Below are positions 10,855 to 41,090 of a DNA stretch of 64,000 nucleotides, piece after piece. The position numbers were made by a program, and so were the translations under genes. Under the pieces are notes generated by a model, which did not search any database, was not told where the DNA came from, and saw nothing but the letters and a program-made list of their open reading frames with translations. The DNA is from an uncultured Phycisphaerales bacterium (GTDB lineage Bacteria; Planctomycetota; Phycisphaerae; Tepidisphaerales; Tepidisphaeraceae): contig CAVWVQ010000003.1 in NCBI GenBank assembly GCA_963758525.1, positions 2,848,001 through 2,912,000 on the forward strand, written 5' to 3'. Each line of letters opens with the position of its first letter. The first letter of the stretch is position 1.

Positions 10855-10856
10855 CA

Positions 10857-13049: not shown

Positions 13050-13066
13050 CCGGTAGGAAGTTTTGC

Positions 13067-14155: not shown

Positions 14156-14214
14156 CCCAACACCCGGCCCCGCCCGCTCGACGCGCAAAGGCGGAGCAGA
14201 TCGGAGAAGTTCCC

Positions 14215-15294: not shown

Positions 15295-15307
15295 AAGGAC
15301 CCACGCC

Positions 15308-17110: not shown

Positions 17111-17143
17111 CGTGCCATGCATTGGGATCAGGCGTATCTGCAT

Positions 17144-17260
17144 TCCCCTCTCCCGGTACGCCGGGAGAGGGTCGGGGTGAGGGTGATTTCGAAGTCGAGT
17201 GCACGTGGTGCTCGAAGTCACCCTCATCCTAACCTTCGCCCGGGGTACCGGGAGAAGGGA
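17144..17260. repeat. Bipartite palindromic repeat, intergenic copy
   Basis: cccctctcccggtacgccgggagagggtcggggtgagggtga...tcaccctcatcctaaccttcgcccggggtaccgggagaaggg. Confidence 0.85.
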
Positions 17261-17335
17261 CCAGAAGCGGTCGCCGCCGGATGCGATTCCTTGCGACCCG
17301 CTGTGCGACGAGTCGTCATTACGCCAAGGTGAATT

Positions 17336-17914: not shown

Positions 17915-18642
17915 GCGAATCCCCAAATATGGTGGCACTGCCCCAACAGCCCGGCCAAAAGCCGTTCGACGTGTTGCGACGATTTGCGCGGCGGCGCAAC
18001 GCCGAAGAACGATGCGAATTGTGCGGGGCGGACATCGCCCGCGAGCACGAGCATCTGGTCGAAGTGGCCAATCGCAAGCTGCTCTGTGCGTGCGGCGCGT
18101 GCGCCATTCTCTTCAGCGGCCAGCAGAGCCCGCGATATCGCCGAGTCCCGCGAACGGTGCGATGGCTCCAACGTTTTGAGATGACCGACGCGCAATGGGA
18201 AAGCCTCAGCGTGCCGATCAACCTGGCCTTTTTCTTTCAGAGCACCCCGGCGGCGCGCGTCTGCGCGTTCTATCCGAGCCCGGCAGGGCCGACCGAATCT
18301 CTGCTGCCGCTCGAATCGTGGCACGAACTGGTCGCGATCAATCCCGTGCTGAAAACGATGGAGCCGGATGTCGAGGCGCTATTGGTCAACCGCGTGGGGG
18401 ACGATCACAACTACTACCTGGTTCCAATCGACAAATGTTATGAGCTTGTCGGGCTGATTCGATTAAAGTGGGCGGGGCTGTCAGGAGGCACTGAAGTCTG
18501 GCGCGAGATCACGCGGTTTTTCGCGGAGCTGCGCGAGATCCAATCCGAACCCAAGCCCGCCCGCGGCCCAACCCTCCCCCGGAGCACCGGGCGAGGAAGA
18601 ACGAAACCTTCCTGCAGTGTCGCGCCCCAATGGCTGATCTGA
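17911..18642 (+). CDS. hhaA: Conserved group 1h accessory protein (DUF5947/HhaA-like); its C-terminus includes a repeat copy at about 18567-18600
   Basis: ERCELCG, CACGAC, YPSPAGPTES, PIDKCYELVG, GLSGG. Confidence 0.75.
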   Translation: MSESPNMVALPQQPGQKPFDVLRRFARRRNAEERCELCGADIAREHEHLVEVANRKLLCACGACAILFSGQQSPRYRRVPRTVRWLQRFEMTDAQWESLSVPINLAFFFQSTPAARVCAFYPSPAGPTESLLPLESWHELVAINPVLKTMEPDVEALLVNRVGDDHNYYLVPIDKCYELVGLIRLKWAGLSGGTEVWREITRFFAELREIQSEPKPARGPTLPRSTGRGRTKPSCSVAPQWLI

Positions 18643-19280
18643 ATTTCCACGTCGAGTTTGCCGAAGCGATGCCCTTCGCTGCCGCCCCGCAGTTGATCTT
18701 CAAACTCCGGGTGACCGACGCGGAGAATACGGCTCCGATTCACGCCATCGCATTGCGCTGTCAGATTCGCATCGAGCCCGCCAAACGCCGCTACTCTCCT
18801 GGCGAGCAGGGCATGCTTCCTGACTTGTTCGGCCCGCCGAGCCGCTGGGGTCAGACGCTGCGGCCGATGCTCTGGACCCACGCCGCCGTGGTCGTCCCGC
18901 CCTTTTCCGGCAGCACGCTGGTGGATCTTCCCGTGCCCTGCAGTTACGACCTGACCCTTGGCGCTACCAAGTATTTCTACGCGCTGGAGGAGGGGGAAGT
19001 GCCGTTGGTTCTGCTCTTCAGCGGAACGATTTTCTACGGAACGCAGGACGGCGGCATGCAGGTGGGACAGATTTCCTGGGAGAAAGAGGCCGCGTACCGC
19101 CTGCCGATCGATGTCTGGACAAAGATGATGGACCTCTATTATCCCAACGTCGCCTGGCTCTGCCTGCGGAAAGACGTGTTTAACCGGCTGTCACAATACA
19201 AGTCGCAACGCGCGATCCCGACATGGGAGCAGGCCGTGGAAGAATTGCTCTGCCAGGCAGACGAAGGGGTGGTGCCATGA
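18630..19280 (+). CDS. hhaB: Conserved group 1h accessory protein (DUF6084/HhaB-like)
   Basis: LRCQIRIEPAKRRY, DLFG..RWG, PCSYD, LLFSGTIFY. Confidence 0.75.
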   Translation: MADLNFHVEFAEAMPFAAAPQLIFKLRVTDAENTAPIHAIALRCQIRIEPAKRRYSPGEQGMLPDLFGPPSRWGQTLRPMLWTHAAVVVPPFSGSTLVDLPVPCSYDLTLGATKYFYALEEGEVPLVLLFSGTIFYGTQDGGMQVGQISWEKEAAYRLPIDVWTKMMDLYYPNVAWLCLRKDVFNRLSQYKSQRAIPTWEQAVEELLCQADEGVVP

Positions 19281-20485
19281 ATCGAGAGTTGCTTGAGAAG
19301 ATCGTCAATGCCGTCTTGTATGAAGGGTACATTCTCTACCCGTATCGTCCGTCGGTGAAAAATCACCAGCGATGGACTTTCGGTGGCCTCTATCCGGAAA
19401 GCTGCGATCTGGTCCGGCAGGGAGCCGAGTCGTGCGTGATGCAGACGCAATGTCTGGTCGAGGGTCCCGCGGCAACCTTGCTGCGGGCGAGCGTGCGTTT
19501 TTTGCACCTGACGACGCGAGTGGTCGGCGAACTGCCAGAGCCGGTGGACGAATTGCCCGCCAGCGGAGTTTCCGCCCTTTCCCCCTCTCCTGGTACTCCG
19601 GGAGAGGGCTGGGGTGAGGGTGATTTCGAACGTCGAAAGGCTTTCGACGCGGAGAATCACCCTCAAGATGCCCCTCTCCCGCAGTACCAGGAGAGGGAAC
19701 GGCAAAGCATGCACCTGGGCTACCGCCCGGTCGATTCTCTTCGCGTGGGCGGCAAGATCTATCAGACATGGCAGGAGGCAAGCGAGCGCGAAGTTGCAGT
19801 CGAATCCTTCACGCTCGGCCGGCTGACGCAGAGCACCATGACTCATCCCTTTGCGTTTTCCCCCAGCGAGGAAATCGAACCGTTGCGCAGGGAGGACGGG
19901 AGAATTGTTGCCGTGCTGGTGCGCCGCCAGGAAGCGCTCGGCGGAGTTGCTGAGTTGTCGGCCGCGAAGAAGGCGGATGATCTCTTCCAGATTAGTGTGC
20001 GCGTGATCAATCTATCGCCGATGCCGGGTCCGCAGAGCATGCCGCGCGACGCCGCCCAGTTGTATTCGCTGGCCTCCACGCACACGATCCTGAGCGTCGA
20101 AGGCGGCGCGTTTGCCTCGTCAATCGATCCGCCTCCCGGTTGTCTGCCTTTTGCCGGCGAGCTGCGCAACATCGGCTCCTGGCCGGTGCTCGTCGGCGTC
20201 GAGCCGGATCGCGATACCGTGCTTGCGTCCCCGATTATCCTCTATGACTATCCGCAGATTGCGCCGGAGAGTCCGGGCAATCTGTACGATTCCACCGAGA
20301 TCGACGAAATCCTGAGCTTGCGGATCATGACGCTTACCGACGATGAAAAACTCGCCGTTGCCGGGTCGGATGAGGGCGCGGCACGGATTCTCCAGCGCAC
20401 CGATGCGCTGGGACAGGACCAGATGGCGTCGCTCCACGGAACCTTGCGTGGGCTTCGGACAGTTGCCGGCGGAGACAAATCATGA
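19277..20485 (+). CDS. hhaC: Conserved group 1h accessory protein (HhaC-like) with an in-frame repeat insertion
   Basis: AVLYEGYILYPYR, RWTFGG, SPIILYDYPQIAPESPG..DSTEIDEIL. Confidence 0.75.
   Translation: MNRELLEKIVNAVLYEGYILYPYRPSVKNHQRWTFGGLYPESCDLVRQGAESCVMQTQCLVEGPAATLLRASVRFLHLTTRVVGELPEPVDELPASGVSALSPSPGTPGEGWGEGDFERRKAFDAENHPQDAPLPQYQERERQSMHLGYRPVDSLRVGGKIYQTWQEASEREVAVESFTLGRLTQSTMTHPFAFSPSEEIEPLRREDGRIVAVLVRRQEALGGVAELSAAKKADDLFQISVRVINLSPMPGPQSMPRDAAQLYSLASTHTILSVEGGAFASSIDPPPGCLPFAGELRNIGSWPVLVGVEPDRDTVLASPIILYDYPQIAPESPGNLYDSTEIDEILSLRIMTLTDDEKLAVAGSDEGAARILQRTDALGQDQMASLHGTLRGLRTVAGGDKS
19580..19697. repeat. Bipartite palindromic repeat inside the hhaC-like gene
   Basis: ccccctctcctggtactccgggagagggctggggtgagggtga...tcaccctc...cccctctcccgcagtaccaggagaggg. 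Confidence 0.85.
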
Positions 20486-20807
20486 ACGACTGGGATCCGA
20501 TGGCCGAAAAACGTGAGCTTGAGAGCGCGCTCTCGGCCGGCATCGAATTGAAGCGCGGCGACCGCGTTGTCCTGCGCCGCGCGGCAACGCGGATATCTTC
20601 GATCTGGCCCTGGCCGGGAAGATCGCCACAATCGCTTCCATCGAACAGGATTTCGAGAACAAGATTCATCTTGCGGTTACAATCGACGATGATCCGGGCC
20701 GGGATTTTGGACACACCGGGCAGCCGGGGCATCGTTTCTTTTTTGGGGTGGATGAAGTCGAGCTGGCGCCGGATCGGCGCGACGCATCTTCTGAACAGGT
20801 GTCCTAA
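20482..20807 (+). CDS. Small conserved hydrogenase-cluster protein, one frameshift near 20578
   Basis: GDRVVLR, then in a shifted frame ADIFDLALAGKIATIASIEQDFE...DDDPGRD...HRFFF, ending TAA at 20807. Confidence 0.65.
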
Positions 20808-20841
20808 TGGCCGCAATTTAGGCCGCTGAAGGAGTCTTATC

Positions 20842-21075
20842 ATGAATGAAAACCTTGATCCGCAGGCTGCAGAGGCGAGAGATGTGCTGTGCGTCGCGGG
20901 GGGAATGGCATTGCTGCTGATGGGCGTTGGGCTGGTGATGACACACCCGCAGGTCCGAAAAACGGTGCTCGATGGCGTGTCGCGATTTGTCCCCGATCTG
21001 GCCGGATCGCTCAAGAACGGCCTCGCGGGAATCCTGCCCGACGTGGAGCGTTATCTTAAAGTGCGCTCGATGTAA
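20842..21075 (+). CDS. Small single-TM protein ending LPDVERYLKVRSM (DUF6893-like tail)
   Basis: AGGAG RBS; hydrophobic stretch; C-terminal motif shared with 22200-22358. Confidence 0.7.
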   Translation: MNENLDPQAAEARDVLCVAGGMALLLMGVGLVMTHPQVRKTVLDGVSRFVPDLAGSLKNGLAGILPDVERYLKVRSM

Positions 21076-21104
21076 TCCCCGGTTCCGCGAAAGGAAGCGA
21101 CCAG

Positions 21105-21667
21105 GTGACTCGATACGCTTTTGACTCCTCTCGCAGCCGTTTTACTGTTCAGGCATTTGCCAGCGGGATGCTCTGGGCGTTCGCCCACAATCCGACGATT
21201 GCAATCAAGGACTTCACCGGCAATCTCAATTTTTCCCCTGCGCCGGGGACAAGCCAGCGCTCGACCTGGTGGTCAATGCCCATTCGCTCGAGTCGGTCGA
21301 TCCGATTCGATTGAAGGACAAGCAGGAGATTCAGGACACCATGATGGAGATGCTCGATGTGGCCACCTATCCGATGGTGCGCTACAAGGCCACCGATGCC
21401 ACCGTCACCCAGCTCTCCGACAGTTGGTTCCGCGTGCAGTTCAAGGGGCATTTGTCGCTGCGCGGCGTCACCAAGGCCGAGGAGGTGGACGCACAGCTCA
21501 CCCTGCTTGAAGGTGAGGTCCGTCTCAGCGGTTCGTTTCAGATACTCCAATCGCATTATAAAATTCATCGTCCGTCCGCGGCCGCCGGGCTGCTGATCAC
21601 CAAGGACGAGCTGAAGTTTACATTCGACGTCCATGGAACCATCGCTCCCGAGGGAGGCGCCGCGTGA
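21105..21667 (+). CDS. YceI-like lipid/polyisoprenoid-binding protein, one frameshift, no signal peptide
   Basis: SRFTVQAF..G...HNP; MLDVATYPMVRY; GHLSLRGVTK; KDELKFTFDV. Confidence 0.75.
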
Positions 21668-22215
21668 GCGCGCCGCGGATCCTCATCGCCTGCATCGGGA
21701 ATATCTTTTTGGGAGACGATGCATTCGGCGTCGAGGTGGCCCGTCTGCTGGCGCAGGTTCCCTGGCCCGACAGCATCCACGTCGAGGACTTTGGCATTCG
21801 CGGCGTCGATTTGGCCTACGCGTTGCTTAATAATTACGATGTTGCAATTTTCGTGGACGCAAGCCAGCAGGGCCACGCGCCGGGAACGCTTTTTGTTCTT
21901 GAGCCGGATCTGGCTCCAGTTCTTGCAGACGCCGCCGCGATGGAGACGTCCATTGATGCACATAGCATGGACCCGGCCAAGGTGCTTCGGACCGCGGCGT
22001 CCATGGGCGGAAAGATCCCGCGGGTTTTTGTGGTGGGCTGCGAACCTTCCCCGCTGCCGGGCGACGACGAGGTCGCGTTGGAACTGAGCCCCCCAGTGAG
22101 AGCGGCAGTGCCGCTCGCGGTCCCGATGATCCGCGATCTGGTCCATCGGATCCTCTCCAAAAGCCTGCTTTCGAACGAGGCACAACAGGAGATATCGTCA
22201 TGCTCACCGATATGA
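21664..22215 (+). CDS. Hydrogenase maturation endopeptidase (HupD/HybD family)
   Basis: GNIFLGDDAFG, DFGIRG, VDA, DAHSMDP, VGCEP. Confidence 0.9.
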   Translation: MSAPRILIACIGNIFLGDDAFGVEVARLLAQVPWPDSIHVEDFGIRGVDLAYALLNNYDVAIFVDASQQGHAPGTLFVLEPDLAPVLADAAAMETSIDAHSMDPAKVLRTAASMGGKIPRVFVVGCEPSPLPGDDEVALELSPPVRAAVPLAVPMIRDLVHRILSKSLLSNEAQQEISSCSPI

Positions 22216-22358
22216 AAGTGCTCGCAAACGCGAGCGATGTCATGTCCCGCCTCAATGGCTGGGAAATCAGTGGAATCATTGCGGCCGTGCTCGTTGCGGG
22301 CGTGGCCATCTGGATGCTGCCGGAGCTCATTCGCTACATGAAGATCCGCCATATGTGA
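22200..22358 (+). CDS. 52-aa single-TM small protein (DUF6893-like), not in the ORF track
   Basis: CAGGAG RBS; translates to MLTDMKVLANASDVMSRLNGWEISGIIAAVLVAGVAIWMLPELIRYMKIRHM; fills the gap between the protease and hypA. Confidence 0.75.
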   Translation: MLTDMKVLANASDVMSRLNGWEISGIIAAVLVAGVAIWMLPELIRYMKIRHM

Positions 22359-22370
22359 CCGCGGGGACGC

Positions 22371-22718
22371 ATGCATGAATTATCGATCGCGATGTCGATC
22401 GTCGAGACTGCGATCGAACAGGCCGAGAGTCTCGGCGGCGCCAAGGTGCTGGCAGTCCATCTCAAACTTGGGCCCCTTTGCGGCGTCGTCAAGGAAGCGT
22501 TGCTCGGGTCATACGAACTGGCTGCTGAAAACACCGAGCTGGCCGGTTCGAGATTGGTCATTGTGGAGACGGAGTTGCGGGCATATTGTCCAAATTGCGC
22601 GGTGGAACGCGCCGTCGTGTCCACGACGGACATATCCTGCGTTGAATGCGGCACGCCCACCCCTGAAATTACCAGCGGCAGAGAACTCGAAGTCACTGCA
22701 ATGGAGATTCGCGAATGA
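22371..22718 (+). CDS. hypA: Nickel metallochaperone HypA
   Basis: MHELSI, CPNC, CVECG, GREL. Confidence 0.95.
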   Translation: MHELSIAMSIVETAIEQAESLGGAKVLAVHLKLGPLCGVVKEALLGSYELAAENTELAGSRLVIVETELRAYCPNCAVERAVVSTTDISCVECGTPTPEITSGRELEVTAMEIRE

Positions 22719-23407
22719 GTCAGCAAACCCGCCTCGTTGAGGTGCGCCAGCAGGTCCTCAAGCAGAACGATGTCGTCGCCCGCGCACTCCGCGATCGCTT
22801 TCGCAGCGCCGGCGTGTTCGTCGTCAGTCTTGTCTCGAGTCCCGGCTCGGGAAAAACGGCGTTTCTCGAAAAAACACTGACCATGCTTCGCGAGGAATTT
22901 CGCGTCGCGGCCCTTGTGGGTGATCTTGCCACCGACAACGACGCGCGCCGATTGGCCCGCAGCGAAACGCCGGTAAAGCAGATCACCACCGGCACACTGT
23001 GTCATCTCGAAGCCGAGATGGTGCGCGCCGCCCTGAATGGCTGGAACGAAAGCGAGCTGGATTTTCTGTTTATCGAAAACGTCGGCAATCTCGTCTGTCC
23101 CGCGACCTTCGATCTGGGGGAGGACATGCGGCTGGTGCTCTTCTCGACCACCGAGGGCGAGGATAAGCCGCTGAAATACCCGACGATCTTCAACAGCGCC
23201 GACGTGGCGATCATCACCAAGATCGACCTTGCCGACGCTGTCGAATTCGATCGCGGCGCGGCCCATCGAAACATCCAGTCGGTCCGGCCAGGGATGGAGA
23301 TCATGGAAGTGTCGTCCAAGTCCGGCCAGGGCATGGAGGAATTCCTCCGCTTCCTGCGCACGCGCCGCCGCGAGGCACGCGGTGAGGCGGTTGCCGCCGC
23401 GCGATGA
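22715..23407 (+). CDS. hypB: Nickel-incorporation GTPase HypB
   Basis: SSPGSGKT, CHLEA, ENVGNLVCPA, EGEDKPLKYP. Confidence 0.95.
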   Translation: MSQQTRLVEVRQQVLKQNDVVARALRDRFRSAGVFVVSLVSSPGSGKTAFLEKTLTMLREEFRVAALVGDLATDNDARRLARSETPVKQITTGTLCHLEAEMVRAALNGWNESELDFLFIENVGNLVCPATFDLGEDMRLVLFSTTEGEDKPLKYPTIFNSADVAIITKIDLADAVEFDRGAAHRNIQSVRPGMEIMEVSSKSGQGMEEFLRFLRTRRREARGEAVAAAR

Positions 23408-24273: not shown

Positions 24274-24393
24274 GCAGCAAAGTTGAATTGGTAGCTTCTG
24301 CAACGACGCGTGCAAATCAATGATTGACTGATCTACAAAAACAACCACAGAGAGGGAGGAGGCCACAGAGCCCACAGAGAATGCAAAAGCAAG

Positions 24394-24531
24394 AAAATGC
24401 GAAGGGGGTCGGGCCGGGTGACCCCCTTCGCGTTCCGCGTTCCCAGCCAGGAAGCTGGGGTGACGGCCTGACCCCCTTCGCATTTTCAACCGACGGGAAA
24501 GGCTGATGACTGATGACCCCCTTTCCTTTCC
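24394..24531. repeat. Cluster of GAAGGGGGTC/GACCCCCTT REP-like hairpins
   Basis: gcgaagggggtc...gacccccttcgc; related copies at 28001-28031, 28736-28785 and 31930-32030. Confidence 0.75.
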
Positions 24532-24539
24532 AGGAAATA

Positions 24540-24672
24540 GTAACTGTTTACCGTGGCAAAATGACCGAGAATCACAGCATGGAAACGGGCCGCGAGACGT
24601 AATGGCGCGCATTGGGCATCTCAAAATCCCAGCAAAGTTGCTATCTGTGCGCTGCTGACGGTAAACAGTTAC
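24540..24672. mobile_element. 133-bp MITE with 15-bp perfect TIRs and 8-bp target duplication
   Basis: GTAACTGTTTACCGT (24540-24554) and ACGGTAAACAGTTAC (24658-24672), flanked by AGGAAATA at 24532-24539 and 24673-24680. Confidence 0.88.
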
Positions 24673-24696
24673 AGGAAATACGGGCTCTCTTCACTC

Positions 24697-24760
24697 CTGA
24701 ACCCTGAACCCTGAACCCTGAACCCTGAACCCTGAACCCTGAACCCTGAACCCTGACACC
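24697..24760. repeat. Heptamer tandem repeat (CTGAACC)x8 plus a CTGACACC variant
   Basis: Read directly from the sequence. Confidence 0.95.
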
Positions 24761-24841
24761 CTCAACCCTCGCTTTGCCGAACTTAAGTCAAATGATTCTG
24801 CCCTGCTTGCCGCCGACAGCGTCATCCGTGGTTCAATCTCT

Positions 24842-27716
24842 TTAAAACGATTGTCCGCCCGCAACTTGCTTTACCTGATCATCGGACAGCGCCGCGGACC
24901 AGAACCGCACTTCATCCAGCGACCCATGAAACCAGGGACGGCTGGAATCCGCCGGGCGGGCGAGATAGCAGTGCGACTTGGCGGCCGGCGGCCGGAAATC
25001 GGCCAGCGTCATGGGGAACGGACCATCAGCCTCAACAACTCCGTCGATCACCAGCCGGGCGTTCACTCCGTCGAGAATCACCGCTACATACGTCCACGCC
25101 CCGATCGTCGTGAAATGTCGGCTGGCCAACGTGTGAATGCTGCCTCCCTTGCGGGCGATCAGCGCGAAACGGCCGTGTCCGTCATCGGGCGTCAAATGAA
25201 TTGCGTCCGAAGTCTCGGAGCCGATGAACCAAACCGGCTGATCCGGCGGGCCGCTCTCCCGGCGAACCCACGCCGTGATGCTTGCGATGCGCATATCCGC
25301 CACGCTTCGTTCCAGAAGTACCGCCTGCGTCTTTCCATCGAACGTGAGAAAGCCCCTATGCCGTCCCCCGCCGGCTTCCCAATGGGGATGGCCGATCAGG
25401 ATGCCATCGTTGAGGCCCGGGCCATCGAGCGCCAGGCTTTCGTTGGGCGCATCAAAGTCATAACTCACCCATCGATGCGGCGGGGCGTGACGCTGGTCAA
25501 TCCATTCCTGCGGGCAAGCCTGATACGGGACAAAGCCGGTCTGGAAGCCGTTGCCGGCGTGATGCGGCCCGCCGTAGTCGGCAGTGAGCACGGCGTCGCC
25601 GTCGATGCCCGGCGATGCCGCGCCATCCTGCCCGTTTCCCCACACCTGAACGCACCCTTCGACCGTGGCATTTTCCCTGATGAGCGCGTGGTCCTTGACC
25701 TCCGCGGTTTGCAGCGCGCGGGCATCGTCGGCGAGATGCGCATTCTCGGTGATAAACGCGTAGTCCCGGACGCGGGCATGGCCGTCGATCACCGCGTCGT
25801 CCTTGACGAGGGCGTGATCGCTGAGAATCGCGTTGTCCTTCACCTGCGCATTGCCGCGCACTTCGGCGAAGTCCTCGATGTGCGCCGAACCTTCGACGCG
25901 CGCGTTGTCCAGCACCATCGCGTTGGGCCCGACGAAGGCGCTGTCGGCCACATGAGCGGTGTTCGCGACGAAACCGCCGCCGTTGGAGTGCGGCCGGCCG
26001 GGAACATCTGGCGCCGAGGGATTTGCTCCAGCGCCGGAACGGCTCCGCTGATTTTCACGTCATAAGCAAGCCGGCGCCGGGAAGGGTGGGTGCGCCAGGG
26101 GAATTGCATGTCGTCCTGCTCCCACCAGACAAACTGGTCGGGCGTGGCGATCACGACCAGAAAAACGCGATCGGTATCGGCCGGCAGCGAGAGCGCCTGC
26201 GTTCCCTTGTCAAAGAGAGGCGAGGCGGCGGCTTCAGTGCCGTCGCGCCGCCGGGCGACAATGCACGCCCGCCAGTCGGCGGCAACTGACTTGTCCGGCA
26301 AGCCGTGAAATTCCACCGCCACCCGGCTGCCCCAATGACCCTCGGCGGGAACCAGTTCGTGAACCGTGTACCCGCCCGGATTGGGCGCTTTCTCGGGGGA
26401 AACCCGAAAGCGCCCGGAAGCATAGGGCACGGGGAGCAGATCGGGCCAGATCAACCTGCGGTTCTCGGGATTTGCGCGGAAGTCTTCGCACGCCCGCCGC
26501 ATCGCCGACCCGTTGCTGAATGCCCACGTCACCGACCGGCGGGCATAGTTTCCCAAAGCGGCTTTGATGTCCAGCCGCGGGTCGAGCCGGCGGATGCAGT
26601 CAAAGATATTTTCCTTCTCGTGAATGCTCTGCCATAGCCGGCCCGAAAAGCCATCGGAAAGTCCCGGCAGCAAATCGGGATTTTCATCCAGATACGTCCA
26701 GATGGGCCAGCAGAGGTAATAGTCGCGCCCGTGCGCGGGATACCATTGGCTCATGGTGGAGAAATACGGATCGATGCCGCTGACGGGTACGGTGTTGGCG
26801 ACATTGGGGTTGTCCGACTGCTGGGCGTAGAAGTACATGAGGTAGCGCTCCCGGCCGTAGTTTGCGTGGCTCTCCCACCACATTCCCCTCATGCCGCCGT
26901 GTTGCGCCTCCTGGAAGGCGTGCATCAATTCATGCGGGATGACCCAGCTTGGCGGATCGACGCGCAGGCCTGTGGGATCGATGTTGACCACGCCGCCGCC
27001 GGTCATGTATCCGCCCTGGTGCGTCGTAATGTTCACTTTGTAGAGGCGGTTGGGAGATTGGCCGGGAAGAGAGTAGGGGGGCTTGAGCTTGAGGGCCTTG
27101 ATGTAATATTGCCAGCATTCCTCGAAGTTGCGCAGCGTGCCGTGGGCCTGCCCGGCGGTGAAGTTCTCGCTGAGCCCTTTGCCCCAGTAGATCCGAAAAT
27201 GCTTCGACTGCGCGGATTTCTGCCCCCGCCAGTCGGGCAACTCGAAGGTCAGCCCGAATTGCTGCGGCTCGTCATCCCCGACCTTGGCCGACACCAATTT
27301 TGCCGGCGGCTCGACGGCGATCGATTGCACGCGTCCCCGCCACCAGACCTGCAGGCTCATGTCGATCCGGTAGGTGTGGCGTCCGCCGTCTCCGATGACT
27401 TTGGCCGCCGGGATCGTAATGATCTGTGGCGCGGTCGTGCCCGGCGCGTGGGTGCAGACATACGCGACGTTGATGTCGCGATGCGCCGCCGAGCCCGCGG
27501 CGATCACCAAATCCAGATAATTGTTGTATCCCAAGTCCAGATCGGGACCGCCGTTGCCGCCGTCGGCGATCGGATCGCTCGCCCCCTGCAAGGGCGTGGT
27601 ATCGTCAACGGTAATCGGTAGTTGTGACTGCGCCGCGCGGCAGCGCCCGATTGCCGGGGCGACTTAATCAGGATCATCAGCGCACACAGCAGAAAGATTC
27701 GCGGTGTTATGGGCAT
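24842..27716 (-). CDS. Secreted protein: DUF6055-like HExxH metallopeptidase domain, hexapeptide beta-helix and LamG domain; frameshifted
   Basis: Signal-like MPITPRIFLLCALMIL; PHELMHAFQ, WESHANY, RDYYLCWP; AFVGPNAMVL repeats; FHGSLDEVRFW. Confidence 0.7.
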
Positions 27717-27735
27717 TGTTCCAGAAGATAAGGGA

Positions 27736-28000
27736 CTGTAACAAAATAACTTAAACAATTGGTCTGCAATTTGCATGGCTATGGACGGTACGTACACGGA
27801 GGTGCGTAACGTGAGCATCACGGTTCAATTCAAGTATGATACACTGGCCGGTGCGATGAACGAACAGTTTCGACGGCGTTGGGCTGGCTGCGAGGCACTT
27901 GCAATGGGCCGGGGCGGCGTCAGTATCGTCGCGGCGGAGACAGGGATGTCGCGTAATACCGTTCTGCGGGGGATCGCGGAGATTCAGGAACAGGTGATGA
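27736..28000 (+). pseudogene. 5' fragment of an ISAzo13-family transposase, truncated at a REP-like repeat
   Basis: EQFRRRWAGCEALAMGRGGVSIVAAETGMSRNTVLRGIAEI resembles the N-terminal HTH of ISAzo13 transposases; no DDE domain follows. Confidence 0.7.
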
Positions 28001-28051
28001 AAAGGGGTCATCAGCCTTTCCCGTCGGTTGAGTGGATGGTACATTCCCTGA

Positions 28052-28744
28052 ATGGCCCGTAAACCCCGATTCTCCCCCGGCGGCTTGGCGTATCACGTGA
28101 TGAACCGCACTCCGGGGAAGGTCAAGCTGTTCGAGGATGATGGAGACTATCAGGCGTTTGAGAAGGTGCTGATCGAGGCGATCGATCTGCATCGGGGAAT
28201 ACGGCTCTGCGCCTATTGCCTGATGCCCAACCACTTTCATCTGGTGCTCTATCCCAAGACCGACGGCCAATTGTCCCGCTTCATGCAGTGGCTCACCATG
28301 ACCCACGCGGCCCGCTGGCATGCCCATCGCCACAGTGTCGGGCGCGGGCATCTGTATCAGGGCCGCTTCCGGAGCTTCCCGATTCAGCGGGACGGGCATT
28401 TCCTGAGTGTCTGCCGGTATGTGGAGCGGAATGCGCTGCGGGCCAGTCTCGTGGCCAAGGCGCAGGACTGGCGATGGGGTTCGCTCTGGGCGAGGGATGA
28501 CCGCAGCAGCGCGATCGCCCGGTTTCTGGCGCCCTGGCCGGTGGAGATGCCAGGGAGATGGGTGACTCTGGTCAATCGGGCGGAAAGCGAGGTAGAGCTG
28601 GCCGCGTTGCGCCGCGCGGTTGCTCGCGGCCGTCCCTACGGCGATGATCGCTGGTCGCAGCGGACGGCCAAGGCGCTGGGCAGTGACAGCTCGTTGCGCC
28701 CGATCGGCCGGCCGAAGAAATCGAAGCCGCCGAGGAAGGGCTGA
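28052..28744 (+). CDS. REP-associated tyrosine transposase (RAYT/Y1 HUH family)
   Basis: YHVMNR, AYCLMPNHFHL (HUH), GHLYQGRFRS, RYVERN, WRWGS. Confidence 0.88.
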   Translation: MARKPRFSPGGLAYHVMNRTPGKVKLFEDDGDYQAFEKVLIEAIDLHRGIRLCAYCLMPNHFHLVLYPKTDGQLSRFMQWLTMTHAARWHAHRHSVGRGHLYQGRFRSFPIQRDGHFLSVCRYVERNALRASLVAKAQDWRWGSLWARDDRSSAIARFLAPWPVEMPGRWVTLVNRAESEVELAALRRAVARGRPYGDDRWSQRTAKALGSDSSLRPIGRPKKSKPPRKG

Positions 28745-30402
28745 TGGCTGATGCGGAAAGATTGGCTTATGGCCCCCTTTTATCACCTGAATTGGAACAG
28801 CTGCTTCCTCCGCTAACCGTGTCCGACGCGAGCCACTCGTCGAATACCGTAACTGCCGTGAGCGGCACGCCGGTGGACCTCTACGTGCCTGAGGTGCTGA
28901 ACTCCGATGGCAGTTCAGCAGGCTATGCGACGATCAATCTGCACGAAGATGCCAGCGCTGCAAGCGGAGCGTCGTTGCCGTGGACGATCGGCGGGGCAAG
29001 CGCAAGTAAGAACGGCGGGACCGTTACGCAAGCCGCCGATGACTCGGTAACGCTGACGCCGACGGGCGGGAATTACGACTTCGATTTGCAGGTGGTGGCC
29101 GGAGAGTACTCAGAAAGCCAGGCGGTGTATGATGTCGTTGTGCATGTTTATACCGTGGCCGTCGAGTTCAACGACACGCCGGCAACGAATGACGATATTG
29201 TTATGCTCGGCACACCGGCGGAGGGTCCCGATATCCCGCCGAACCAGCCCGAGCTTGGCGCGGCGGTGCAGATGGTTGGCGACGGGCCATCGGGCCTTAC
29301 GGTGACGCTGGACAACCCAGACGGTCGTTTGGGTTTTGGCGAGGGAGCCCCTTCGTCGGAACCACTGTCACAGCCCTCATCGCCCGTCCCGACACAACCC
29401 AGTACCCCAAGCTTTACCCTCCCCACGGACGGCTCGTGGCAGTACGTTTCAGTTTTTGGCCTCGGCGTCAGCGCGGCTGTTGGCGACGCCTCGGTTCGGG
29501 TTTCGGGCAGCGTGCTCCGGCAAGTTGGCGGGTTCGTTCTCGGCAAAAAAGGGGCAACGGTATTTTGGTTCAGCGGGTCTAGCATTACCGTGCAGCCGGC
29601 TGGGAATTACGCGTCGGTTAATAACGGTCCAAAGGAGAGTTACACCGTAGACACCGCCGTGAATAACGCGGCGTCAGCGGTCACCATTCAAGGCAGCGCG
29701 ACACTCACCCCAGCCGGCATCGATCCTAATGCGCCCCAGCTCACTGCCTTACGAATCGGCTTTGTGCAAAACGCTGTCAACTCGATGAGCGTGGTGACAT
29801 ACGCAAACCCGGTTCAGGGCGCAGCCGTTAATGGGGGAGGAATTGCGAATGTCGCTCCCACGGAGGTCTACACGATTCAGGTCCCGACGCTTCTCAACGA
29901 CTCGGCTGTCGGCAGCACGCCGCTTTACGCTCAGCCCGGCAACGATTTCAACGACCCATTGACAAGCAATTCCGTGCAATACGCCAACGGGGTCGCACAA
30001 CCCAGCACAATTGACACGCCGTCACTAATTGGCTGGAAGCAATCGTTGACCCTCAATGCAGATGATGCAAATGGCAATGTCGTCGGCACGGTAACCTATT
30101 CCCTTGCAAGCTTAGCAATCGACGACGTTTTTCGAGATTTTCTGGTCGTGGGCGTGGCAGATTCCAATCAGCACGTTACCACGGTAATTGCCCCGTTGAA
30201 GGAGACGGGTTGGCATTTGAACGTGAATTCGGCGGCCGCCAATCCCAACACGCAAGTCGCAATAGTAAACGGCGATGCAAACGGCGGCTCGCCCCCTACG
30301 GATGCTCCGATATTGAGCGGCGCGCTGCTCAACGATGAAATTGCCAATCCGGCGAATTTGAACCTCGCGGGTGTCGGCAACCCCATACAGGACAATTTCT
30401 AG
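28744..30402 (+). CDS. Beta-rich extracellular-type protein, probably 5'-truncated
   Basis: 552-aa ORF rich in Ser/Thr/Asn/Val with lower GC; its first codons derive from a REP-like repeat; no signal peptide. Confidence 0.55.
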   Translation: MADAERLAYGPLLSPELEQLLPPLTVSDASHSSNTVTAVSGTPVDLYVPEVLNSDGSSAGYATINLHEDASAASGASLPWTIGGASASKNGGTVTQAADDSVTLTPTGGNYDFDLQVVAGEYSESQAVYDVVVHVYTVAVEFNDTPATNDDIVMLGTPAEGPDIPPNQPELGAAVQMVGDGPSGLTVTLDNPDGRLGFGEGAPSSEPLSQPSSPVPTQPSTPSFTLPTDGSWQYVSVFGLGVSAAVGDASVRVSGSVLRQVGGFVLGKKGATVFWFSGSSITVQPAGNYASVNNGPKESYTVDTAVNNAASAVTIQGSATLTPAGIDPNAPQLTALRIGFVQNAVNSMSVVTYANPVQGAAVNGGGIANVAPTEVYTIQVPTLLNDSAVGSTPLYAQPGNDFNDPLTSNSVQYANGVAQPSTIDTPSLIGWKQSLTLNADDANGNVVGTVTYSLASLAIDDVFRDFLVVGVADSNQHVTTVIAPLKETGWHLNVNSAAANPNTQVAIVNGDANGGSPPTDAPILSGALLNDEIANPANLNLAGVGNPIQDNF

Positions 30403-30410
30403 GAGAGAGT

Positions 30411-31471
30411 ATGTGCGGATTCTCTGTGCGTGCATTTCTCATCTTCACCACGCTTGTTTCGGGAGAGTCGCATTTAGCGGCGTCTGCTCAGTCTGAAACA
30501 GCGTCTTTAGGACAGGATTCACCTGGGTGCGCAGTGCGCATGGCGTGTGACATCGCACGTTTCAACCCTTTGGAAATCGACGGCCGCAATGGTGACGGAT
30601 GGGCGGTTTTACAGATCACGCCGGACCGTTGCGGGTACACAGAGCGCGTTGATCTCGCGATGTCCGAGGACGGGCAGGCATTTCCCGTTCCGCCGCCTGC
30701 CTCGCTCGAACGATCAATTGTCGGCGGAACGGTGCATCTGATCTCGGTTCTCTCGGGAAACCCAGGTTGCGTGGAGAGGTTCGAGGAGGTGACTATCGGC
30801 GGTGCTAACGCGCCCGACCCCGGCGTGTCCGAAAAATTTTACTCGCCATTCGAGCACGGAGGTACATTGGTTTGCCGTGTCAATAACGGCTTCCCGGGTC
30901 GATACCGGTTCTGTCCGGCTATTCTGATTCCATCGGAGTGGGCAAGCCAAGTTGAGCCCGCCATTCACTTTGTGCGGCAAAACTCGCAGTTATTCGACCC
31001 GGCCAACCTGCAGCGAGCGCGCCCTCGGCTCGAATCGCTTCTAAAAGATCCCAACCCTCTCCTCTCGGCTGCAGCAGCACGCCTGTTGGCGGCCGTGGGC
31101 GGATCGGACGACGCTATCGAGCGCCAATTGGCGATGACGAGAGACCCGGTGCTTCAAAGTGTCTTCGTCCGGGTTTTGGTTTTCGGCGGTCCAACTACCG
31201 CCTCTACCGATCGGGTAAGGGCGATCTGCAAGTTGGTCGGCTTGCGCACGAGCCAAAGGTCGTTCGGCCGCTTGCTGTCGGGACATTGGCGGCCGCAGCG
31301 CGACGTTTCCCTTGGGACGGACCATGGGATTCGGTAGATCCACTGATACATAGTCTGGCAGAGAAACTCTCTGACGCTTCGAACTCCTCAATCTACGACC
31401 GGCAGCTAATGAAGATGATCCAGGCGACGGCGCACTTTACCGATGCCCGGACCCCCACAACGCGCCAGTGA
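30411..31471 (+). CDS. Hypothetical exported protein with a HEAT-like C-terminal part, probably frameshifted near 31240
   Basis: AGGAG RBS; hydrophobic N-terminus; LESLLKDPNPLLSAAAARLL. Confidence 0.5.
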
Positions 31472-31545
31472 AAGTTGTCGCGACGCAGTGAAAATGGCAC
31501 CTGTTTTAAACGGAAAACGGGACGTCGCGACGTCACTGATTTCCG

Positions 31546-31920
31546 GTGATCGGGCTCACGCCCTTTGGCGTAACCCTTGGCGGCGGCACGTTCGACATGG
31601 CGGACAAAAGCGAAAGCTTCAACCTCCTAGCCGGCAGCGGAACGGTCACCGATTCATCGGCGACTGCTTCGTCCCTGACGATCGGAACCGCCAACGGCTC
31701 GGGCACGTTCTCCGGCGCGATCCGCAACGGCAACGCAACCGTCAGTCTGACGCAAATCGGAACCGGAACGCTCACATTGAGCGGCACATCCGACAACGCT
31801 TCGCTCGCGCTGGACGCCGAGGCGGGGACGACCATTCTGAACAAGACCAGTTCCGCCAGCGTCCACGCCGTCTCGGGGATCACCAACATCGCCACCGGAG
31901 CCCTCGTCCAGCTCTCCCGC
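31546..31920 (+). pseudogene. Internal fragment of an autotransporter-associated beta-strand-repeat protein
   Basis: GTFSGAIRNG..SLTQIGTGTLTLSGTSDN; lacks both termini; ends at a REP-like repeat. Confidence 0.7.
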
Positions 31921-31929
31921 CGCTTGTCG

Positions 31930-32030
31930 GGGAAATGCGAAGGGGGTCACCCGGTCATCAGGGCTCTGTAGAAAACCCCCAGTAACGCGAGAGCGGGGAA
32001 AGGAAAGGGGCCAGCCATCAGTCAGGCCAG
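31930..32030. repeat. REP-like repeats matching the 24394-24531 cluster in inverted orientation
   Basis: ggaaatgcgaagggggtcacccgg; ggaaaggaaaggggccagccatcagtcagg. Confidence 0.7.
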
Positions 32031-32575
32031 CTGCCAGCTTCTTCACCATCCAAGTTCTCTGGTTTACGCTGCGTTCCCATGGCTCGAAGGCTGCGATCCT
32101 CGGTCGACGGTCAGGTCTTTCATGTGCCGAAGCACGTGCCGAAATATTACATCTTCCGTTCCGCCCCCCACCTCGATCTTCCCCCTGAGTACGAGGGGAG
32201 GAGGTAGGAGGATGAATTCGAGCACCGAATAAGCGGCAATGCATATCTGTTGCTTGTCGTAAGGCAAGCGATTTTTTGTTATTTACGCATCGCTCGAATA
32301 CGTAAAATTCTGTAAAGTTGTGTAAAGCCAATCGCTGATTCCGAGCGGCAAACGAGGGTTGACCGCCCGGCGGTCACTCCCGTTGTCCCGGATTGTAAAG
32401 CGGCTGTTTGCCCCCTTGCAGCCCGTGGTAAAAGTTCCCGCGCGCGCGGGACTTGCTTGCGGCTTCGGGCCGGGCTCTTCGTTGTCGAGATTCGCCCGCA
32501 TCGTCGCCGGGTATCCGACGACTTCGGCAAATCTGTCCTTGCAAGTCTCAGTAACAGGTTGTGAAATCGGACGGA

Positions 32576-34124
32576 ATGTCGGCGGCTGTCGAATCCCCAC
32601 TGAGTGAGGCGCTGCGACGCAGGGTCATCGGCGCCGGCGGCTCAACGCGATTGGGAAAATCGCTCTTCCTTGTGGCGCTGCTCATTGGCGTGGTTTGCCG
32701 GGTGGCGCAATACGCATCGGATCAATCCTACTGGCATGACGAGTCCGCGATTGTTCTCAACATTCGCAGCCACACCGCCCGGCAACTCCTGGGTCCGCTC
32801 GATTTTGAGCAGGCGGCGCCGCCGATGTTTTTGCTTACCGAGCGAGCGGTTTTCAATCTGGCGGGCGGCTCGGAGTACGCCATGCGCCTGCTCCCATTCT
32901 TGGCTGGGATCGGAGGGCTTTGCGTGTTCGCTCTCCTCGCGCGGCGGCTGCTGACTGCGCCATGGGACGCGTTGGCCCTGGCATGCTTCGCGCTTGGAGA
33001 TCGGCTGATCTGGCACGCGTCGGAAGCCAAGCCATATGCGCTGGACCTTTTCGTCGCGCTCTTACTGACGCTGCTGGCGGCGGGACAGCGGCGCGGACTG
33101 CCAGCTTCGACCCGGCTGCTTCGGGTGGCGCTGGCCGCGACGCTGGCGATGTGGTTCTCTTATCCAACCGTCCTGATTTTCGCGGCGCTGAGCCTCGCGC
33201 TGCTTCCCGAGACTGTTTCGGCAACCGGCGACGGGTGGATCCGTTATGTCCTGCTGAATGTTCCGCCGGCGGCGTCGTTTCTCTGCGTTTTTGCTCTTTC
33301 GGTACGGGTGCAGCAAAGCCATGCGCTGGTCCATTATTGGGACAGCGAATTTCTTGATCTGCACCGACCCTGGGAGTGGCCGTGGTGGCTTGCGCCATGT
33401 GCATTCGCTTTGCAATTACGCGTTGCCCCTTGCGGGACCGGCGGTTCTCGTCGGCGCGGTCGCGGGCGGGGTGGCGCTCTACCGCACGCGCGGGAAGCAG
33501 TTGCTGGCGATCCTTGCCGGTCCGTTGGCGATTGCGATCGTCGCGGCGGCGGCACACCGCTACCCGTTTGACGGGGCCCGGCTCACCCTCTTTCTCAGCG
33601 GATCGATGCTGCTCCTGGCCGTCATCGGGTTTGAATGGATCTTCTCGCAGGCGCCGCTGCGGCTGCGAAAGGCGACGCTGGCGCTTCCTGCATACGTGCT
33701 GATCACTGCGCTGATAACGGCGGCCATTCACATCGTTCACCCGCGCAACCGCGGCCACATGCGGCCGCTCGCGGAGCACCTCGCACGGCAAGTGAGGAGC
33801 GACGACGCGCTGTTTGTTCTCGAGCAATGCGAATTTGAATGTTATTGGAATTCCGATGACCCGCGTCTCCATTGGTCGCTTCCCCGCGCGGATGCCATCA
33901 CCGCTCGTCGGTTCTGGATCGTGTGGTCGTTTTCCAACACGCGCGCCGCCTCGCGGCGCGAGGCGATTCTCCAATGGGCGCGGAAATTCGCGAGGCAACG
34001 CGAACTGTTTGATTTGCGCGACGCACAGGCGGTGCTCTTTGAATCGACGGGCGCACCGATCGCGCCTCGCGACAACCAACCCCCGGATGTTGCGGGCGTG
34101 CCACATGATGCTCATCGCGATTGA
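32576..34124 (+). CDS. GT-C (PMT/ArnT-like) polytopic membrane glycosyltransferase, one frameshift
   Basis: SYWHDE, QAAPPMF, SEYAMRL, EAKPYA, YPFDGARL. Confidence 0.7.
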
Positions 34125-37473: not shown

Positions 37474-40472
37474 TCATTTCCCCTTTGCTTGGTGCAACGA
37501 ATTTCCGGCAGCGACGATGTCAGCCTTGAGCGTTGCATTGTTCAGGATGGCATCGTAGGTTCCCGACGCCGCTGACGTGTCCTGGGCGAACAAAGCCTGC
37601 GCTATCTGTTTTTGAGCCGAGGCGCTGATGCCCAATTGGTCCGATGTGCCCACGAACGCGGCAGGCAGCCCGTTGTTGTCTACCGTTTGCTCAAAGTTAT
37701 CCACGTCGTTCGAGGAAACCGTGGTCTGGCCAAGGCCGGCTTTGTCGAGTTGCGCCGTTTCACGCTCCGTCAGCTTCGGCTCGGCCAATAAGAAAGAGGC
37801 CTCGCGCAATTTGTAGGCCGTGAGCGCAGAGCGTTGTATCTTCTCCCACTTGGTGCTCTTCGCACTCGTCGCGCCGCTGAGACGGTTCTCAGTGGTATAT
37901 GCCGCACTGGCGTAGTCAATGATCTCTTCGAGGTTCAATTCGACAACATTGATTGCCGAAACAAGCGGCTTGGCATTCTTAACGCCAACAAAGCTCTTGG
38001 CGGTTGAGAATATTGCCCTGGTCGGTGCTGCGGGTTTGGCGATAGTCTCATAGGCCGGGCTTGCAGGGTCCACTGCAAGTTGATCGAGATCCAATGACGC
38101 GAGCGCCGAGAGAACCGCGTTCGTAGTCGCCGCTGAAGCGATGCCGGGGACGTTAGGGACGTCGCTTGCAAAATCATTGGCCGCAGCTGCAGCGCCAGCT
38201 GCGGAAGTATCGAAACCGGCTGAGGTCGTCGACACGGCGGCTTGCTGCGATGGGGTCAGGCCGCTATTCGTCGACTGTACGTAAGCAGTGACTACCGCTG
38301 ATTCGTCTCCGTCCCAGCCTTGGGATATTGCGGAGAGTGAATCGACCGAGCTCTGGTTGTTTGAAGTCACCGCTTGGGTGGTGTAACTGTATACCGAGGT
38401 CGCGTTATACGTCGCGTCGTTCGCTACGGTGCCACCGTTGGCGTTTGTGATCAGCAGCGACTCGCCTTCACCATTCTCATTTTCGTCGGTCGTTGAATAC
38501 TGAATTTCGACGGAGATTGCGGTACCCGGCGCAACGCCGTCAAGTGGCACTGGACCTCCATCAATGGGAATGTTGAATGTCCCAGGCATTCCGGTCACCG
38601 TTACCGAGCCCATGGCCGTAATGCTTGAATCCATATTTAACGTTTCGGTGACGGTTGCCGTCCCGCTTGCCACACCCGTCACCATACCATCACCGTCGAC
38701 GGTTGCAGTCTGGTCGTCGCTGGAGCTAAAGGTGACTGCGCCAGGGTCCAAGATGATTGGCTTGCCTTTTGCGCCGTTTGCGGTGACGTTCAACGCTTCA
38801 GTCCCACCAACATCGAGCGCAATGGGAGCGATGGTAAAAGTGGTTGCATAGTTCCCGTGCATGAGCAGCGTCATGTCGTCGGATTGCCGTCCCGAATCAC
38901 CCTGAAAACTGATGGAACTGAGGTCATTGGCCGCGGCAGTATAATTGGTGCCTGCGTTATCCGAGTTACTACCCTGAATCTCGGCCCGAAGCGCGGGCGT
39001 TGACAACACACCTTGATACTTCATATCGACTAGGGCGATTTGCGGATCGCGGTCGAGTTTATAAAACTCGGACTTGTAATTCCCCTGCGCAGCGTTGAAC
39101 TTCACATATATCGTATACAAAAGTACGGTCCAAGCCTGCGCTGGCGTGATGACCGGAGTCTTAGACTGCGGATTAGCGTTATAGGACTTCATCACGTCCG
39201 AGTATTTAAGCCCCGCCGCAGCCAAGGCCTTGGTAGCAAATGCCTTATTGTTGTGCGGCCCGCTCGCCGCTACATTCAAGCCGTACCCAACCGTCGGGAC
39301 CGGCGGCACGTCACTGTCTGAGTAGACATAATCCCGAAATTTTTCGTGGTAGGCAATTACCTCAGCCATTGCGGGATCCACTGGGCTAATTGGGCCAGCT
39401 AGGCTCTGTCTGACGGATCGAATGTTCGGCGCTCGTTAGGTATTGCGCGTTCTTCTATGATCGTCATGATGTTCTCCACATGGAGGACAGATGGCGCACT
39501 ACGAACTCACGGATGATCACTGGAACCTGATCAAGGCACTTTTCCCCGTACAAAAACGTGGCGGACGATGGAACGACCACCGCATCACGCTCAATGGGAT
39601 GCTCTGGATTCTTCGCTCCGGAGCTCCATGGCGAGACATGCCCGAACGCTACGGGAAATGGAAGAGCGTCTATGATCGCTTCAACCGCTGGCGGCGCGAA
39701 GGCTTCTTCGATCGCATCCTCAAAGCACTGCGGATTCGACTCAACAAGGAGGGCAAGATCGATTGGGATCTCTGGCTCGTCGACGGCTCCAATGTGCGTG
39801 CTTCTCGCGCTGCCGCCGGGCGCGCAAAAGGGGGCGCGGCCTCGACTTCGAACCGGCCGACCACGCGCTGGGCCGCTCGCGCGGCGGATGGGGATCAAAG
39901 TTCCACGTGGTTACTGACGGAAAGGGCCTTGTGCTCGCCGTCACCGTTACCGCGGGGCAAACGCACGAATCCACGCAGCTCCACAAGGTGATGCACGCGG
40001 TGCAGCCCCCCTGCACATCGGCTGGCCGGGGAAGATCGCGGGCGACAAAGGGTACAGCTACGAAACCGTTCGCCAGTTCCTGGCCGATTGCGGGATCGAA
40101 GCCGTCATCCCGCGCAAATCCAATCAGCCACGACCAAAGGGCGAGCGATTCGATAAAAGCAGCTACCGCAAACGAAGCCGCATCGAGTGTGCTATCGGAT
40201 GGCTCAAGGAATGTCGTCGGCTGGGAACACGCTATGAGAAGCTGGCTCTTAACTTCTTGAGCTTCGCCAAACTCGCTATCATGCTGAAATACCTGAGGGT
40301 TCTCGATCCGTCAGACAGAGCCTAACGGACCGCTAATGCCATCCCCGGCACCGGCAAGAACCTCACTTGCATTTGCGTGAATGACGTCATAACCCGCCTG
40401 TGTTACAGCATTTGGATCGTTTATGTCTATGGAATAGGAAAATAGAATTCTAGCTTCCAAGCTCTGAATCAT
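37474..40472 (-). pseudogene. Secreted LEPR-XLL-motif protein with a GH24 lysozyme-like domain and Big_2 Ig domain, interrupted by IS5
   Basis: Removing the IS and one TA joins MIQSLEARILFS (ATG at 40472) in frame to ORF 37474-39381; HEKFRDYVYSD...PTVGYG; VTFSSSDDQTATVDGDGMVTGV. Confidence 0.8.
39402..40322 (+). mobile_element. IS5-family insertion sequence (IS427-like), 921 bp
   Basis: 20-bp perfect TIRs GGCTCTGTCTGACGGATCGA; TA duplication; transposase 39491-40325 (YELTDDHW, WRDMPERYG, DKGY, RYEK) with an AAAAGGGGG slip site near 39826. Confidence 0.93.
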
Positions 40473-41014: not shown

Positions 41015-41090
41015 GCCGGGCCTTTCAAACCTAAATGAACGTGCGCGATTACGCGCACGTGCGAGCAGTATGCTGCCCTCAGGGCAGCCG

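Follow-up and report, generated by a model that had tools for sequence, protein, structure and literature searches.

How do cut-off gene fragments come to lie side by side around one small transposase gene, in an island sprinkled with copies of its own short repeats? The question is raised by positions 24394 to 32030 of a 64-kb stretch of DNA (the window) that forms part of contig C3 (5.04 Mb) of an uncultured Phycisphaerales bacterium, whose 6.47-Mb genome is assembled in six contigs at 91% completeness and 6% contamination. An earlier note, made from the letters of the window, had described a RAYT-centered mosaic whose gene fragments break at cognate REP-like repeats and had proposed that RAYT/REP activity captures or shuffles pieces of surface-protein genes. 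We find that the island, flanked by a hydrogenase cluster with a DUF4058 gene on one side and by a glycosyltransferase gene on the other, is a decayed cluster of TIRtrons, elements in which a RAYT-like tyrosine transposase (TIRYT) lies between terminal inverted repeats (TIRs). It is a pile-up of TIRtron ends, one decayed example and no new system. These ends abut cut-off genes without a short target duplication, and we propose that the enzyme joins each end to target DNA independently, a reading to which we give a probability of roughly 0.58. The class of element is already named, and its mode of action was not found in the literature searched; TIRYTs or TIRtrons are named in only two of the works there, and no study of TIRYT transposition was found in that search, whose reach did not extend to subscription papers and supplements.

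An intact TIRtron and its transposase

The center of the island, 27993-28787, is an intact TIRtron, with the TIRYT gene between its terminal inverted repeats. This family-A element is 795 bp long with 24-bp TIRs, and its limits are repeated in three other family-A copies. One contig of the public sequencing run X1 likewise begins to match at 27993, next to a different left flank; that flank is absent from this genome and is a low-agreement consensus of two contigs, hence a hint only. The family-A TIRs read GGGGTCAT/GGGGCCAT, one base from the published GGGGWSAS consensus, a core common to only some TIRs and exact in three of the eight TIR copies of the window (family E).

The repeats were found where the earlier note had put them. 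All six TIR-family hits of the window fall within 24393-31957, so that the repeats are indeed confined to the island as far as the window goes, but genome-wide there are 86 TIR motif hits in six families and 24 clusters. Nor do they form a single family: family-A copies do bound both ends of the transposase, but the window repeats comprise at least two TIR families (A and E) together with stubs of other insertion sequences (IS). The perfect 25-bp inverted match between 24486-24510 and 28007-28031 was borne out and occurs nowhere else in the 6.47-Mb genome.

The TIRYT scores 52 bits against PF01797 (cut-off 23) and 58.2 bits against the NCBIfam RAYT model NF047646 (REP_Tyr_transpos), under the cut-off of 80. 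The HUH/Y1 enzyme with cognate repeats that mark breakpoints was thus correctly seen, but it is not a RAYT by this score. Residues H61, H63, and Y123 are invariant among 40 relatives, and the structure model (pLDDT 93) has as its top fold match the Escherichia coli TnpA-REP (4ER8), followed by ISDra2 and IS608. The protein, of 230 amino acids, carries an NHFH motif and a helical tail at 144-215; its tyrosine motif reads YVERNA, the consensus of the 40 relatives YVERNP. Its best-scoring named relatives are found in Phycisphaerales and other planctomycete bins, which points to a planctomycete as the likely host. Of 31 related genomes, 24 contain matches; this genome and G004 are counted among them, and G004 enters into no other claim made here. 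An inverted repeat of score at least 14 brackets the gene in 70 of 112 full-length relatives, a set that includes the copies of this genome.

As for the repeats, no GT(A/G)G-tagged hairpin was found on either strand in 27701-29100, and single ends fold no better than shuffled sequences (z of -1.3 to +0.4 in four stretches); the paired ends at 24390-24490 alone fold (z of -8.1). The missing hairpin and the nonfolding single ends led us to reject the REP hairpin reading: what had been called REP-like are the TIRs of a multicopy element.

TIRtrons and TIRYTs were named as a class in 2013 (Di Nocera et al., PMC3733652), and Quentin et al. (2018, PMC6006769) equate them with subclass 2.1, RAYT group 1, the largest group of RAYT-like proteins, in ~15% of species (Table 1 therein). 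The TIRYT of the island likely belongs to this group. It shares with TnpA-Y1 subclass 2.1 and RAYT group 1 (Bertels et al. 2017, PMC5581495) its length (230 against a median of 238 amino acids), the NH[YF]H motif, the C-terminal extension, and the lack of REP sequences, and with the TIRtrons of 2013 the RAYT-like tyrosine transposase between TIRs, the presence of TIRs also as small repeat families, dimers, and clusters, and, in part, the GGGG-W-S-A-S-like core. Insertion sites, truncated neighbors, long duplications, and chained ends are not described in the covered parts of that 2013 paper. The tyrosine motif is YVERNA here and Y---NP in the published group. A further difference lies in copy number: subclass 2.1 is reported at 1.9 copies per genome, 49% mean identity, and 6.3% duplicates, and a preprint (10.1101/2021.07.10.451892) describes group 1 genes as single copy and unable to duplicate, whereas this genome holds 48 TIRYT matches with up to 99% identity. 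Family B counts seven copies, 84 to 99% identical over >760 bp and placed in unrelated contexts, four of them on C3 with a partner at 95% identity or more, the published criterion for a recent duplicate (PMC5581495); family A counts four full-length copies, 82 to 93% identical. The single-copy, non-self-duplicating gene that is a trait of RAYTs and REPtrons is therefore not what is seen here. REPtrons with TnpA-REP (RAYT groups 2 and 3; PMC8266576; 4ER8) resemble the present element in their HUH fold, catalytic residues, and expected strand transfer through a 5'-phosphotyrosine, but here there are no GTAG-tagged hairpins, the repeats are few and terminal, and the gene itself multiplies.

Cut-off genes at TIRtron ends

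Three breakpoints of the island proved real. The ISAzo13 stub on the left of the TIRtron is 99.6% identical to C3:4297641-4297904, and the comparison shows that it stops at the repeat as claimed, the two diverging exactly at 27992|27993, the first TIR base. This second stub, longer by ~165 bp, is cut off by a TIR from a different family, and a third piece is a C-terminal stub in a further TIR cluster; all three ISAzo13 pieces of the genome thus lie in TIR clusters and none is whole. On the right, open reading frame (ORF) 28744 does start out of the repeat: its ATG lies inside the right TIR region, its first 14 codons are element DNA, and beyond residue ~22 it corresponds to the C-terminal half of a P0001-like protein (1,021 amino acids, 49% identity; P0001 residues ~484-1020), so that the surface-protein half begins within ~8 codons of the TIRtron right end. 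The severed N-terminal half was not found in the genome, where the sole other match is a separate large gene. The third fragment, an autotransporter-associated piece with 874 relatives (E ≤ 0.001), most of them far longer, is indeed truncated and beside the third TIR end, but its homology ends at residue 124-126, 10 to 13 nt before that end.

The claim that the gene fragments break at repeats holds for the first two breakpoints, holds for the third only to within 10 to 13 nt, and fails for two other genes. The DUF6055/LamG gene, the largest of the island, and ORF 30411 break at none. Homologues of the former are single frames of 1,239 and 1,460 amino acids in 2 of 140 other genomes of the family, and no homologue of similar length was found for the latter, whose apparent frameshift may be an assembly error, one X1 contig having an extra base within it. 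Frameshifts affect several genes of the window (24842-27716, 30411-31471, 32561-34124), and some may be errors of long-read assembly. The full-length parents that the earlier note had suggested looking for were not found with these queries in this genome, in 140 family genomes for ORF 28744, or, at a strict cut-off, in 120 family genomes for the autotransporter piece; absent parents fit deletion as well as capture.

The same note had also proposed a genome-wide comparison. Among 63 outermost TIR ends, 32 have a homologous flank elsewhere, and by hand count the best-reaching flank alignment ends within -3 to +2 nt of the TIR in 15 of them, within 16 nt in 23, and at 42 nt or more in 9. Of 41 flank frames scanned, 7 match any Pfam family, and five Pfam domains end at the joint or close to it. 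Cut flanks hold an integron integrase, a group II intron maturase, an alpha-galactosidase, DUF4058, and IS pieces. The outer ends are sharp; partial copies vary at their inner side and are stacked in the same orientation, across families too. In 9 of 14 joints, a set entered manually after an ambiguous fifteenth case had been omitted, the last shared base is G.

The telling result concerns the second flank, because truncation of a flank alone follows from any insertion. In none of 13 paired elements is there an exact duplication at the assumed limits, and in none does a homologue span the joined flanks, while a homologue of one flank is present for 8 of the 13 (local copies only in 2). As a control from the same assembly, the TA duplication is kept in 9 of 9 IS5-type copies, and a duplication of at least 14 bp in 3 of 3 copies of another IS. 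Nor did 41 relatives, with 15 nt of slack, show any consistent length or offset of a short target duplication. Long direct duplications are anchored at the element end in 4 of 67 elements, compared with 4 of 291 random points (pooled set; Fisher P = 0.043), a count that leaves out L042 (~295-bp duplication) for its flank of <1 kb. Outside this count, a 60-bp mini-element lies within a duplication of 528 bp. At C3:2841565 the duplication exceeds 730 bp, and partial duplications extend 5 to 6 kb back.

Similar patterns are seen in other lineages; 80 metagenome loci, mostly short, served for a spot check only. Two Sulfuricurvum genomes (G153 and G188, 97% identical) have the element and both of its neighbors in common, and the DNA beside the left end of the element differs: in one genome, facing TIRs enclose an RHH-PemK pair, and in the other a membrane gene is fused to a C-terminal piece of Hsp70. 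At L289:559-1083, a small membrane gene appears to be fused with a C-terminal piece of Hsp70, the fusion ending just before a TIRtron left end. In Sulfurovum (G157, L056), a 4.35-kb block consists of a loose TIR, two cargo genes, a TIRtron, and an addiction module, and the two genes that border it are adjacent in 4 of 4 congeners fetched. One cargo gene of this TIR-containing island encodes a phosphagen (arginine) kinase (L056:8565-9602). In Nitrospira (G154, L053), the element splits a ~1.6-kb duplication that is single in two congeners. Some TIRtrons thus lie inside duplications of 0.3 to 1.6 kb.

Proposed independent end joining and its alternatives

We propose that TIRYT would nick at the outer edge of the TIR and remain on the element 5' end through Tyr123, in keeping with HUH enzymes, which produce a 5'-phosphotyrosine that is resolved by a 3'-OH (PMC8266576). 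Release would come from a 3'-OH of target DNA, at a nick, a break, or a fork end, and the base at the joint would be a purine, in most cases G. Since the two TIRs have identical sequence and differ only in strand, their joints could form independently and at different positions. Overlapping joints would leave a long duplication and separated joints a deletion, with no fixed short duplication; aborted events would leave chains of stacked partial ends, and repeated events at one spot, together with other IS inserting at TIRs, would give the mosaic of the island. Deletion, duplication, and shuffling are supported by the data, and to that extent the capture-or-shuffling proposal stands; capture of outside DNA was not shown, and the specificity for surface-protein genes found no support. 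LEPR-XLL genes lie within 20 kb of 4 of the 24 TIR clusters, against 4.7 expected by chance, and the proximity test was null at 5, 10, and 20 kb, which led us to reject specificity for surface proteins or polymorphic toxins; LEPR-XLL genes were identified in that test by a motif pattern, and the RHS pattern performed poorly. By hidden Markov model, 2 of 4 RHS core matches lie in one TIR cluster, too few for a test.

Several points weigh against independent end joining. Since any insertion truncates its target, the 15 of 32 ends alone single out no mechanism, and since empty sites are few, unrelated flanks are for most elements indistinguishable from insertion followed by later deletion. Long duplications are lacking in 63 of 67 elements, and their enrichment is marginal and comes from related genomes. 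One more IS family of the control showed no clean duplication, a case that the script did not resolve. The G seen at joints is perhaps part of the TIR. In the island, the autotransporter joint is 10 to 13 nt off, and the 5' break of that piece lies at no TIR of the six families. No match was found in plasmids (E of 1e-20) or phages (E of 1e-10), which fits poor horizontal spread. Finally, the cut site, strand, and substrate of TIRYT are inferred here.

The alternative that survives best, though we regard it as unlikely, is that TIRtrons insert cleanly, as whole units, and that ordinary deletions alongside them and recombination among the many copies made the mosaic later, in a neutral graveyard of IS. 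Both processes are frequent causes of lost IS target duplications, and IS also occur at the center of large duplications (PMC11708052). Many TIRtron copies are old, as in family A, and other IS gather at TIRs: an IS5-type element (window 39398-40324) has nine near-identical copies, and for three of them a TIR end is no more than 5 kb away, a zone that makes up 5% of the genome (P = 0.008); a DDE IS lies inside a TIR with a 9-bp duplication. Clean insertion predicts clean survivors, however, and there are none among the 13 paired elements, even for copies 96 to 99% identical, in an assembly where ordinary IS keep their duplications. Moreover, clean insertion alone leaves unexplained the chained partial 5' ends and the joints between ends of different families. 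The same contrast separates TIRtrons from the IS that have been reported amid large duplications or deletions without target duplication (PMC11708052): there too an element lies between long copies or at a deletion, and insertion into breaks has been proposed, but such cases are exceptional for those IS, whereas here no clean insertion was seen at all. IS200/IS605 TnpA (IS608, ISDra2) shares the Y1 fold and makes no short target duplication, but those elements have two distinct subterminal hairpin ends and insert cleanly, unlike the present inverted copies with no rejoinable flanks in 13.

Much less probable is a host-kept system of cassette capture, in which TIRYT and TIRs would join fragments, foreign ones included, between facing TIRs at fixed loci and swap them under selection. 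The two Sulfuricurvum genomes that differ beside a shared element, the Sulfurovum island absent from 4 of 4 congeners, and the fragments whose parents were not found in this or the family genomes searched would all suit it, as would the stretch 24532-27992, which lies between two facing ends. An inversion of this stretch between the 25-bp arms would be compatible with the end orientation. Facing ends, seen in 15 of 20 nearest TIR copies, are expected for any two neighboring elements and are no proof of capture, however, and deletion explains the missing parents equally well. Much of the flanking DNA consists of IS, intron, and integrase stubs, no enrichment was found near surface-protein genes, and no conserved cassette order, promoter, or site was seen.

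That the joints are assembler chimeras, formed at a repeated element in a long-read metagenome bin, is very improbable. The bin does have 6% contamination and several frameshifts, and no contig of four public runs bridges 27993 or 28787, a further point against independent joining, although stretches without contig cover carry no information. The copies differ by 7 to 18%, though, and are <800 bp in a 5-Mb contig, where more repetitive IS (99% and above) keep matching flanks. In X1, possibly the source sample itself, four contigs that abut one another span 29003-31937, and the joint between ORF 30411 and the autotransporter piece is bridged; X2, a run from another study, repeats the joint C3:2843141, outside the window; and the same patterns recur in unrelated genomes. 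Least likely of all is the original picture of a classical RAYT acting on REP-like hairpins and shuffling surface-protein genes, for which the 4ER8 fold and the surface proteins among the cut window genes (two of three) could speak, but which the score under cut-off, the absent GTAG hairpins, the unfolded single repeats, few, terminal, and element bound, the multicopy gene, and the lack of surface-gene bias all contradict.

Independent end joining has consequences that can be put to the test. Sharp ends, copies up to 99% identical, and joints at nucleotide resolution make it assayable, with defined substrates, whether and how these enzymes move, and the island would be a good test case for the proposed mechanism. 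If ends are indeed joined separately to a 3'-OH, this would be a way, so far undescribed, in which deletions, long duplications, and gene fusions arise in many phyla, and it might serve as a tool for joining ends. A broader generalization, which we hold to be rather doubtful, is that TIRYTs are a widespread HUH class that ligates a fixed DNA end to free 3' ends, each end in its own turn. They would then be neither clean transposases nor domesticated single-copy genes but break-joining, cassette-swapping machines that take up chromosomal or incoming DNA in a variable slot next to the element.

Other features of the island and its surroundings

Features of the island, with positions in the window

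Feature	Position	Strand	Remark
Pair of facing family-E TIR ends (24393-24416, 24464-24487) enclosing a partial third one; gene-less mini-element	24393..24487		Arms 96% complementary
Family-A left-end remnant fused to E end	24486..24531	-	Carries 25-bp match to 28007-28031
Unrelated 133-bp miniature inverted-repeat transposable element (MITE), 15-bp inverted ends, 8-bp target duplication	24540..24672		Inserted 8 bp outside TIR
DUF6055 + hexapeptide + LamG gene, split by two frameshifts	24842..27716	-	Pfam; apparent own start and stop; not cut at repeat
ISAzo13 5' stub (model positions 4-51 of 387)	27729..27992	+	Cut exactly at TIRtron left end
Left TIR of family-A TIRtron, 24 bp	27993..28016	+	Homology to other copies begins at 27990-27994
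TIRYT, 230-amino-acid HUH/Y1 transposase (HuH = H61-F-H63; Y123)	28052..28744	+	PF01797
Right TIR of family-A TIRtron	28764..28787	-	20/24 identical to left TIR
3' half of PKD/Ig-like surface-protein gene (ORF 28744)	28788..30402	+	Frame opened by ATG inside element end
Orphan secreted-looking gene (ORF 30411)	30411..31471	+	Directly behind ORF 28744; not cut at repeat
Autotransporter-associated repeat protein, inner fragment of about one repeat unit, truncated on both sides	31546..31920	+	61% to P0008 residues 274-392
Left end of dead family-E TIRtron (TIR, leader, first TIRYT codons at 32079)	31931..32140	+	TIRYT start read by eye; no Pfam hit

The family-E end of the mini-element on the left of the island recurs elsewhere in the genome. 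The MITE beside it, which may be of IS66 type, judged by its end motif alone, has a second copy at C3:2843612-2843745, 98.5% identical and likewise at a family-A end; both copies thus lie at or inside family-A TIRtron ends, each with an 8-bp duplication of its own. The short tandem repeat between the MITE and the DUF6055 gene is common genome-wide and unrelated to TIRs. At the right border, the dead family-E end is interrupted by the end of a DDE IS (31962-31995) and by an A-like TIR (31996-32023). The full DDE (PF01609) IS (C3:2843772-2844952) and this miniature of it are inserted in TIR sequence itself, with a 9-bp duplication, and the IS may target TIRs. MITE and DDE IS have thus both inserted at or inside TIRs, here as at C3:2843612-2844960. 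Just beyond, at 32133-32526, lies a noncoding repeat of ~300 to 400 bp with about ten relatives in the genome, several of which adjoin TIR ends or TIRYT starts.

The congeners G001 and G002 share the hydrogenase cluster and have no island cargo genes in the stretches fetched, the gene order differing after hypB. In both, a DUF1501 gene follows within ~3 kb of hypB; in the present genome (window 8184-23407 and C3:2829900-2831350), some 25 kb separate this gene from the hydrogenase cluster, upstream of which it lies, and the hydrogenase cluster has TIR clusters on either side. The window is preceded by a TIRtron cluster, just upstream of which are type VI secretion genes (VasE, DotU; L182:10943-13100). 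Within the window, 40763-41465 holds a small gene pair that includes a HEPN domain protein and resembles a toxin-antitoxin pair. Elsewhere, a TIRtron at L141 (C1:198700-210700) is bordered by stubs of a group II intron maturase and of an integron integrase, one on each side, within an array of ~110-bp repeats, which may be integron cassette sites. At L157:5044-15330, a large LEPR-XLL surface protein has behind it small genes, a stack of TIR ends from four families, and a TIRtron, an arrangement that resembles a tip-and-partner array.

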